Of a stretch of 64,000 bases of DNA, positions 1-3,000 are shown one piece after another. The position numbers are program-made. The stretch comes from a virus (Duplodnaviria; Heunggongvirae; Uroviricota; Caudoviricetes), in IMG/VR virus record IMGVR_UViG_2718217789_000003; one strand, written 5' to 3'. How positions within the stretch are numbered: position 1 is the stretch's first letter; each line of letters begins with the position of its first letter.

Positions 1-3000
1 TGATGCCAGTAATCCGGCTTCTTTTAGTCGCTCCGTATAGGCCAGTGACACATACTGAGAGCCTTTATCGCTGTGATGGATGGTGCCAGACGGACGACGG
101 GCCCACAACGCCTGCTCCAGCGCATCCAGCACGAATGTCGTTTCCATAGACGATGAGACCCGCCACCCCACGATGTATCCGGCAAACACATCAATGATAA
201 ACGCCACATAGACGAAGCCCTGCCATGTGCTGACGTAAGTAAAATCAGCCACCCACAGCTGGTCAGGTCGTTCTGCCACGAACTGACGGTTTACGCGGTC
301 GCCTGCGGCAACGGCTTTCCGGCTGATGGTCGTACGGACCTTTTTACCCCGGAGAACACCGGCAAGTCCCATAACCGCCATGAGACGTGCCACTGTACAT
401 CTGGCCACCCTGATTCCTTCCCGTAACAACTGACGCCAGACTTTACGCACACCGTACACCTGATGATTTTCATCGTATACGCGCTGTATCTCTCTCTTCA
501 GCCAGTCGTCGTGCTGCGCACGGGCACTGCGTTTATCCGGATGATGTCGCTGTTGCTGACAATGGTAATACGTTGACGGGGCAATATGCAGTTCGCTGCA
601 TACCGGTCCGACCCCGTACTGCTCACGCAGCTTATCCAGCAGTGGCATCATTTTTTCCAGAGGCGGTCGAACTCCGCCTTCGCAAAATAAGCGGAAGCCT
701 GGCGAAGGATATCGTTACTGCGGCGCAGTTCACGATTTTCACGTTCCAGCTCTTTCAGACGCTGACGTTCAGCGCTGGTGAGCCCACCATCACCGCCCCC
801 GGTATCCCGCTCATGCTGGCGAACCCAGACACGCAGAGTCTCCGGCGTACAGCCAATCTTTGGGGCAATGGAACAAATTGCCGCCCACTGTGAGTCATAT
901 TCATCCTGACTTTCCAGAACCATACGAATCGCCCGCTGACGGACTTCGGGGGAAAAACGAGTATTTTTAGTCATCCTGTTTACCTCTTTCTCAGGGAGTT
1001 TAGTCTCCAGGATTTCCGGGGCGGTTCACCCAGTGTCTCGACTACTGGTTCGACAACTACGTCTCTACAACTCTCAGAGAAAAGACCCAAGCACTTTACC
1101 GATCAACGGTTATGAAGCGCATGCATGACGCCTTCCCTAATCGTCCGGCATCTTCTATCACGGTTAAGCAATGGGTTGACCTGCTTACCGAAGAAGAAAA
1201 AGATAATCCACGCCGAGCAAGGCAGGTGCTAAGTCAACTAAGATCAGCAATTAGTTGGTGCATGCGGCGTCAGTTGATAGATAGTTGCGCAATTATGAGC
1301 ATCCAACCAAGGGACTTCGGCTCCCGCGCTGAGGTAGGGGATCGGGTACTGTCGTATCACGAACTGGCTAAGATCTGGCTTGCTATTGAAAGAAGCCGTG
1401 CGTCTACGTCAAATAAGCTCCTTCATCAGATGCTTATGCTGTGGGGGGCGAGGCTCTCAGAGCTTAGGCTGGCAACAAAGACAGAATTTGACCTGCTGGA
1501 CAACGTATGGACCGTACCGAAAGAGCATAGCAAGATGGGTAATGTTATCCGCCGTCCAATCTTCGATCAAATTAAGCCTTTTCTCGAAAAGGCCATGACA
1601 ACGTACAATGATGTTCTTTTCCCTGGAGAAGACATAAACAAACCGATCAGCATCGCTGCAGCTAACCGATTCGTAAATAGAATAAGGGGAGGGATGGATC
1701 TAGGTTACTGGCGAACACATGATTTCAGAAGAACGCTTGTTACACGTCTGTCCGAGATGAATGTCGAGCCTCATGTTACTGAGCGAATGCTCGGTCATGA
1801 ACTTGGCGGGATAATGTCCGTATACAATAAACACGACTGGATAGAGGCTCAGCGCAAAGCGTATGAGCTTCACGCTGATAAATTGTTCTGGCACATCAGG
1901 AGCATTTCTGATTAACGCCACCGTTAAGAATCCACCCTTCAACAGCTTCACGAAGGTATGATTTGGGGTGGGTTCTGACTGGCTTCGGAAATCCGTGCCG
2001 TTTGGTATAGTTCCAGATTGTCTGACGTGATGAAACACCGAGCTTGTTCATCACTTCTTTCTCAGGAATCAGGCTGGTATCGGTCATCTTAATTCTCCAG
2101 GCAAAAAGAAACCGCCATATAGCGGCTCTATCAGATATGAACAGGCCTCATCGAGTGTGAGGCGTTAGTCCTTGCGTAGCTCGCTGATTCTTCTGTAAGT
2201 CTCTGGTGCTTTGTTTCCGTGTATCTTCATTTCAGACTTCAACAGAGCAACGAGGGAATCCCATTCGTTGAGGATTCCTTTGAATGCCGGAACGCGCTTT
2301 GCAACCTTGTCGAATGAATCTCTGATTTCTGGAATCTGCTCAACAAGTGCAACGCATCGTCTGAAATCGGCTGCGTCATGTGGAGCACCGAAGCCATGAC
2401 CATAGATATTCTTTTTCAGGCCACATGCGATTGAGGCAAGAGTTGCGCTACTGATGCCGACATCGCCAGTTGATTGCCATTTCAAAACCTTCATAGCCAA
2501 ATCTGACATTTCTTGTCTCCATAAAACAAAACTCGCCGTAGCGAGTTCAGATAAAAGAAATCCCCGCGAGTGCGAGGATTGTTAGTTGCGCTCTGCTGCT
2601 GCCTTAGCCATTACCATATCCACACAATTTCACCAGACATGATTCTCGCAATCACTATCATCACCAAAGTGATAATCACAACTTTAACTGGCGGCATCAT
2701 TCACCATCCTGCTGCGGTGCTGCTGGATATACTTTTCTCATCCAATGCGTGGCGTCATGAATAACGAACTGATATTCATCATCAGTAAACATCGAGCCAT
2801 CCCACTGTAGCCCGTCAAGAACACCTCTGGATGGAGAGAATACCCAGATATCGAAATCGTATTTCTCCGGCATTCGCTCACTACAGCTTATCCAACCATC
2901 CGGAGTTACCGGAGAGTTGCCAGCCTTGCGCATGGCAATCTCCATGATTTCAACCATATCTCCTGGTGGAATTTTACAATGCTGACCAATATGCCTCTGC

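Follow-up and report, generated by a model that had tools for sequence, protein, structure and literature searches.

A conserved 28-codon gene for a probable small membrane protein in the exo-xis region of Stx2c-type lambdoid prophages

Here we examine a very short minus-strand open reading frame (ORF) in a 64,000-nucleotide (nt) stretch of the virus record IMGVR_UViG_2718217789_000003 (hereafter the window, meaning this whole stretch), a Stx2c-type lambdoid prophage of Escherichia coli O157:H7. The ORF lies at 2611..2700, directly behind a DUF551 gene. We think it likely that 2611..2697 (extendable to 2700) is a genuine coding gene for a 28-residue micro-protein, that it represents a new lambdoid-prophage family of Enterobacteriaceae coupled to the preceding gene, and that its product would be a single-helix membrane peptide acting via contacts with a partner. 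Judged from its sequence, this exo-xis ORF is a true gene for a small protein, translationally coupled to its neighbour, because divergent copies keep its frame, length and residues with a ratio of non-synonymous to synonymous substitution rates (dN/dS) of about 0.1. Its product is probably a single-pass inner-membrane protein. The route to this result also holds a lesson in method: near-identical copies were uninformative, and selection was visible only via copies from other genera.

Purifying selection across genera

A homologue search with the doubled peptide as query yielded six proteins containing ...MPPVKVVIITL...AR.MSGE.G..W, and from the contigs of these six proteins and a scan of IMG/VR with a back-translated pattern we obtained 14 distinct coding sequences. 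A profile built from doubled sequences returned nothing further, probably since peptides shorter than 30 amino acids (aa) are not returned. All 14 sequences are exactly 28 codons long, counted from the window's second ATG, and share the pattern MPPVKVVIITL-x5-A-R-x-M-S-G-E-x-G-x-I-W, after which we call them the MPPVK family. Their nucleotide identity to the window is 55–96%. The prophage copies from Citrobacter, Enterobacter soli and uncultured relatives lie at 55–86%, and flanking host genes place one locus in Citrobacter (freundii complex) and one in Enterobacter soli.

The variable columns number 17, 11 and 26 at codon positions 1, 2 and 3, respectively. Several codons each are used at Pro2, Pro3, Val4, Val6, Val7, Ile8, Thr10, Leu11, Ala17, Gly22 and Glu23, and the Ser21 codon alternates between TCT and AGC. 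Wherever dS is finite, dN/dS by the Nei–Gojobori method (NG86) is 0.08–0.15 against the window. Because the first ten residues were fixed by one search pattern, we limited a recount to codons 11–28, which are unconstrained by any pattern; here the ratio of non-synonymous to synonymous polymorphism (pN/pS) is 0.33 in frame versus 2.0 and 1.7 in the shifted frames. A scan for the middle and C-terminal motif found no true member without the MPPVK N-terminus. The core exchanges V, I, L, M, A and F freely while the polar and aromatic positions are invariant, a substitution pattern that suggests a specific helix-helix interface with a partner in the membrane more than a non-specific poison.

The sequence-only reading had let its proposal depend on conservation of the reading frame in related phages. 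The frame is indeed kept, in other genera and at 14–45% nucleotide difference, with the exact length and most residues held and dN/dS near 0.1. An open frame, a start and a ribosome-binding site are joined by purifying selection across diverged sequences, as expected of a small protein-coding gene. A separate observation concerns Arg18 (window codon 2646..2644, AGA), which is encoded by AGA or AGG in all 11 sequences with Arg and never by CGN; this use of rare codons holds although synonymous sites are otherwise near saturation.

Start site and coupling to the DUF551 gene

An ORF listing contains the 29-aa minus-strand ORF that had been proposed: from the first ATG it encodes MMPPVKVVIITLVMIVIARIMSGEIVWIW (2611..2700), ending with the stop TAA at 2613..2611. 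However, the start conserved across the family is the second ATG, at 2697..2695. The gene proper is therefore the 28-aa frame MPPVK...WIW (2611..2697, minus strand), on which purifying selection acts in prophages of E. coli, Citrobacter and Enterobacter, and the length given earlier applies only when counting from the first ATG. That first ATG is confined to an E. coli subgroup, its position being ATA in some E. coli copies and GTG elsewhere.

The upstream DUF551 gene (2697..3047, minus strand, 116 aa; Pfam PF04448, E 4.9e-10) ends ...CAG GAT GGT GAA TGA, with the TGA at 2699..2697, and the micro-ORF opens ATG ATG CCG at 2700. The described ATGATGA overlap with the DUF551 stop is present in the sequence, and the TGA overlaps both candidate starts: the first ATG (2700) shares 4 nt with it (ATGA) and the second 1 nt (TGATG). 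A Shine-Dalgarno-like CAGGATGGTGA lies within the last codons of the DUF551 gene (2701..2711, minus strand), with AGGA at 2710..2707 ahead of the micro-ORF starts. In most homologues the same place reads AGGAGGTGAAGTG-ATG, with a near-perfect Shine-Dalgarno set six bases ahead of the start codon, and in most the upstream stop overlaps the start as TGATG; in many, the next gene opens in turn at a TAATG or TGATG overlap. The proposed translational coupling is thus seconded by the homologues, in which both the overlap and the Shine-Dalgarno are conserved. Translation would start at the codon overlapping the preceding gene's stop, served by a ribosome-binding site within that gene's last codons. 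Given this start/stop coupling, we would expect infection or induction to lead to joint synthesis of the peptide and the DUF551 protein.

Over the stretch around the micro-ORF, phages 1717 and 2851 and numerous O157:H7 chromosomes are 100% identical to the window. The earlier remark that the ORF is below standard gene-calling size holds for PGAP/RefSeq and the deposited phage annotations, all of which omit it, but a few GenBank records do list the exact peptide as a hypothetical protein (e.g., BBC51094.1).

Hydrophobicity and predicted topology

The openness of the ORF alone is unremarkable, since the ORF body is open in 11% of shuffles, and an ORF of at least 29 aa arises in 16% of shuffles of the whole stretch from the ATG to the next gene. 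Its hydrophobicity is another matter: the grand average of hydropathy (GRAVY) of 1.76 is at the top of the 165 ATG-initiated ORFs of 25–35 aa in the window and is reached by only 0.14% of open shuffles. T occupies the second codon position in 18 of the 29 codons, so the hydrophobicity is phase-specific and not a matter of base composition. On the Kyte-Doolittle scale, the highest score of any 19-residue stretch is 2.28 (VIITLVMIVIARIMSGEIV), and the hydrophobic segment is long enough to span a membrane. Both values agree with the description of the peptide as almost entirely hydrophobic and fitting one transmembrane helix.

We propose that the peptide inserts as a single inner-membrane helix running from about Val6 to Trp26. 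Under the positive-inside rule Lys5 would lie toward the cytoplasm; the conserved Arg18 and Glu23 would be placed in the helix's outer half and the C-terminal Trp28 at the periplasmic interface. The peptide may then work through helix-helix contacts with some membrane protein of the host or the phage, and not by poisoning the membrane in bulk.

Near-identical copies in E. coli

Of 5426 complete E. coli genomes, 222 contain a 141-nt segment of this locus, as do 10 GenBank phage records, always at an identity of at least 90%. A tblastn search with the window peptide and two divergent members against 50,697 phage records returned the same 10 records and no others, and scanning one genome per species for exact 18-mers produced chance matches only, in unrelated phyla. 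For a comparison of E. coli-type copies we used 69 loci from annotated genomes, IMG/VR and metagenomes, which form 49 haplotypes with an identity of at least 93%.

The micro-ORF is fully intact in 44 of these 49 haplotypes. Two (L004 and L020) have a 1-nt deletion in codon 2, L027 has lost both ATGs, one has lost the last codon alone, and in L015 a recombination breakpoint lies within the ORF. Because disabled copies exist, the micro-gene is dispensable. The haplotypes differ by about 4 synonymous and 8 non-synonymous substitutions, and the antisense frame is open in 49 of 49; with so few substitutions and an antisense frame that is equally open, retention of the ORF in close copies proves nothing. 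On these copies alone, a gene and an incidental ORF within a mosaic linker seemed equally probable, an assessment later reversed by the divergent copies.

The antisense ORF (2570..2764, plus strand, 64 aa, GTG start) runs opposite the micro-gene and the end of the DUF551 gene (its 3' part). Its existence probably just follows from the quasi-palindromic nature of the Ile/Val coding sequence; its C-terminal part varies with whichever gene lies opposite. In L015 (E. coli BY68, ~640-790), the junction inside the micro-gene puts its C-terminal half next to an anti-RecBCD gene's 3' end, yet an in-frame 30-aa ORF with an ATG, MALSVMTEEFTILVMIVIARIMSGEIGWIW, remains.

A second peptide family in the same slot

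In E. coli strain 6883 and in VT1-Sakai, 933W, ArgO145 and WGPS2, a different small ORF starts at the same ATGA overlap with the stop of the last DUF551/Ea22-type gene. These ORFs, all outside the window (784-870 in locus L092; 901-984 in L093, L094, L095 and L096, i.e., 933W, ArgO145, Stx2a_WGPS2 and VT1-Sakai), encode 27–28 aa membrane peptides such as MMNWPEAFTAVGVAIAVAFILYSLFRWG and MTWPEAFANVGTVMAVVLVVYSICRWR, with the motif M[TN]WP[ED]AF...[CF]RW[GR] (the WPEAF family). With dS of 0.27–0.65 and dN/dS of 0.33–0.57, this family is, by its substitution pattern, a real gene, and the slot is therefore a translated one. WPEAF-type matches occur in 99 phage records by tblastn, some of them spurious; the ORF is unannotated in all five records whose annotation was read, with scattered 'hypothetical protein' entries otherwise.

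The WPEAF family resembles the window micro-gene in its position right after the last DUF551/Ea22-type gene, its ATGA overlap, its length, its one hydrophobic helix, its Trp near the C-terminus and the purifying selection upon it. Nevertheless, we detected no DNA or protein homology between the WPEAF and window peptides (shuffle p 0.25–0.68), homology to the WPEAF cassette stops exactly after ATGATG, and the WPEAF and CRWG motifs are absent from the window peptide, which is thus not a member of that family. The two families were never at the same locus among the loci fetched.

Two further candidate relationships were set aside. A cluster look-up linked WPEAF peptides to 121-aa DUF551 proteins, as if the two were fused; the sequences show no fusion but partial ORFs at contig ends. 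In P0009 and P0022, a contig-end 'DUF551 domain-containing protein, partial' is the WPEAF micro-ORF plus a few upstream codons, and such misnaming chains unrelated proteins into one 90% cluster. Nor did we find homology between the window peptide and the ASCH or DUF4222 genes occupying this slot in other cases.

It is tempting to speculate that MPPVK...GxIW and WPEAF...CRWG are interchangeable cassettes for one coupled slot, the last in the exo-xis accessory block, in lambdoid and Stx phages, each cassette with its own ribosome-binding site in the preceding gene's tail, and that they are functional analogues forming a new class of early membrane effectors directed at a host envelope protein. 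We hold this idea only tentatively and would not expect it to prevail. Were it true, the peptides might serve in superinfection exclusion, in control of induction or lysogeny, or in membrane tethering of the upstream DUF551/Ea22-type protein.

The downstream remnant and tandem terminators

The 30 nt past the micro-ORF stop match the start of the MAKSAAERKAAQRARQ... gene, which follows the micro-gene intact in related prophages. What is left in the window is a 9-codon remnant of its 5' end, ATGGCTAAGGCAGCAGCAGAGCGCAACTAA (2582..2611, minus strand), with a TAATG overlap with the micro-ORF stop. Going by this match, a deletion in the window phage lineage took away the rest of the gene, leaving the stump attached to a tandem pair of intrinsic terminators, whose hairpins lie on the minus strand at 2559..2580 (9 pairs, then a T-run) and 2529..2548 (8 pairs, then a T-run). 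The micro-gene in this phage is thus the last ORF before the terminators following loss of its usual neighbour, and its closeness to them is secondary.

The tandem-terminator module (2529..2580, minus strand) is far commoner than the micro-gene: 3203 of 5426 E. coli genomes match parts of an 801-nt query. Other phages have it behind ASCH-domain or DUF4222 genes, and it behaves as a separate mosaic unit. In L101, L102 and L111, the micro-gene stop is overlapped, as TGATG, by the start codon of another ORF (MPNPFD[VAF].MF.LLT.G...), which is likewise hydrophobic at its N-terminal start. A 1-nt insertion in L104 fuses the micro-gene with this MPNPFD ORF.

Alternative explanations

Several observations weigh against a functional membrane-protein gene. 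The window's Shine-Dalgarno, AGGATGG, is weaker than that of the homologues, and the micro-ORF contains rare codons (ATA twice, AGA once). Carriage is limited to the 222 E. coli genomes and 10 phage records, and copies disabled in E. coli include, besides L004, L020, L027 and L015, the C-terminal frameshift in L104. Arg18 and Glu23 fall inside the hydrophobic segment, so that the uninterrupted run from Lys5 to Arg18 covers only 12 residues, and the proposed mode of action is drawn from analogy.

The micro-ORF could be incidental, lying in a conserved non-coding linker where recombination swapped out the body of another micro-gene and left its start signals, so that no peptide made from it would have been selected for a function. 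The substitution counts and open antisense frame of the 49 close haplotypes fit such a history, as do the disabled copies and the end of WPEAF-cassette homology right after ATGATG. Yet the copies in other genera hold frame, length and residues (dN/dS ~0.1; pN/pS 0.33 versus ~2), and the hydrophobicity has a p of ~0.001 in shuffles, which leaves this history very improbable in our view. We give slightly less credence still to the suggestion that what is conserved is a nucleic-acid element, be it GTGAT/ATCAC palindromes serving as a protein-binding array, 3' untranslated region (UTR) hairpins or an antisense promoter. In E. coli copies the central 45 nt hardly vary, a predicted 8-bp hairpin stays paired despite two substitutions at a single G-U pair, and variable sites fall in predicted loops; but pairs are lost through two other substitutions, compensatory changes on both sides of a pair are absent, folding gives a z-score of only -1.85, and no Rfam match was found. 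Moreover, the divergent homologues drop the palindromes and hairpin arms and keep the amino acids, with GTGATTATCAC becoming GTAATAATCAC or GTAATCATTAC.

Two alternatives accept that the peptide is made and assign it another role. As Ile and Val account for 13 of 29 residues and the two intrinsic terminators begin 31 nt past the stop, the ORF could be taken for a leader peptide controlling read-through of the terminators by ilv-type attenuation. The secondary nature of the terminator adjacency, which derives from the deletion, intact relatives having an overlapping gene next, argues against this, as does selection on non-Ile/Val residues (Arg, Ser-Gly-Glu, Trp) that a leader would not need. 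The fold offers no stable antiterminator alternative and the terminator hairpins fold independently; we find a leader scarcely credible. A membrane-damaging toxin, either of a type I toxin-antitoxin system (Hok/Ibs/TisB-like) or a viroporin-like depolarising peptide, would fit the small size and strong hydrophobicity of the peptide and its conserved charged residues, and the analogous slot in 933W is followed by hokW/sokW. There is also a weak opposite-strand promoter-like site inside the ORF (2634..2661), although promoter-like matches number 1 where 2.2 are expected by chance. The defining features of a type I toxin, namely an antisense RNA, an own promoter with a structured 5' UTR, and family membership, were not found: no Rfam antisense RNA family matches, the gene is coupled to an upstream gene in an operon with no promoter or 5' UTR of its own, and the peptide has no similarity to toxin families in Pfam, NCBIfam or PADLOC. 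The conservative core changes and the invariant Arg, Ser-Gly-Glu and Trp also resemble a specific interface, and we consider a toxin unlikely.

Other features of the window

The micro-ORF sits within the exo-xis (early-left) block, with YqaJ-type exonuclease, RecT-family and Ea22-like genes upstream. Downstream of it come the next gene in the operon, encoding a hypothetical protein of 114 aa (2165..2509, minus strand), an AlpA-type excisionase gene (1896..2087) and then the integrase gene. The integrase ORF (1112..1915, plus strand) has 267 aa versus 392 aa in related records and therefore looks 5'-truncated by an insertion sequence; just upstream of it lies an IS3-family transposase orfA-like ORF (648..974, minus strand; NCBIfam NF033516, E 3e-11). 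The gene upstream of DUF551 (3044..3400, minus strand) carries a TGG to TGA change at ~3266, turning Trp45 into a stop, relative to the intact 118-aa coding sequence of strain TR01, and the same split is annotated in phage Stx2a_F349.

Discussion

Neither the MPPVK nor the WPEAF family gave an above-noise model match in Pfam, NCBIfam or PHROGs, PADLOC returned no match when tested with three peptides of the MPPVK family and one of the WPEAF family, and the peptide strings were not found in the searched literature. The MPPVK family is previously undescribed, while small phage membrane proteins are already a known kind.

The closest parallel to a coupled single-helix gene of this sort may be found among the small single-pass inner-membrane proteins of E. 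coli of at most 50 aa, such as AcrZ, MgtS and YohP. Like them, the window product is short (28 aa), with one helix-length hydrophobic segment and few conserved polar residues; their genes are usually missed by annotation pipelines, as here, and the window product, too, would probably work by binding larger membrane proteins. Unlike them, the window gene is phage-borne, lies in the exo-xis region, is coupled to the preceding gene and has no similarity to a described family. The Hok/Gef peptides (hokW-sokW in 933W) are also small, hydrophobic and membrane-directed, and come from the same part of lambdoid prophages, with hokW ~200 nt downstream of the analogous slot in 933W. However, the separate promoter, mok leader and Sok antisense RNA of Hok genes are all absent here, and there is no sequence similarity. 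The ilvL/ivbL-type leader peptides are short Ile/Val-rich ORFs upstream of an intrinsic terminator, a description that also suits the window ORF; it differs from them in the deletion-derived position of its terminator, its lack of an antiterminator fold and selection that extends beyond Ile and Val.

Small membrane proteins often regulate larger transporters, sensors and channels, which makes the MPPVK and WPEAF peptides candidate phage effectors on the host envelope, open to simple genetics. A conserved gene that RefSeq omits and no family library holds is thereby added to the exo-xis region of Stx2c-type O157:H7 phages, and a second, unrelated family fills the same slot in 933W and Sakai phages. 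The exo-xis region of lambdoid and Stx phages affects lysogenisation and prophage induction, and the functions of most of its genes are unexplained (PMC4195576).

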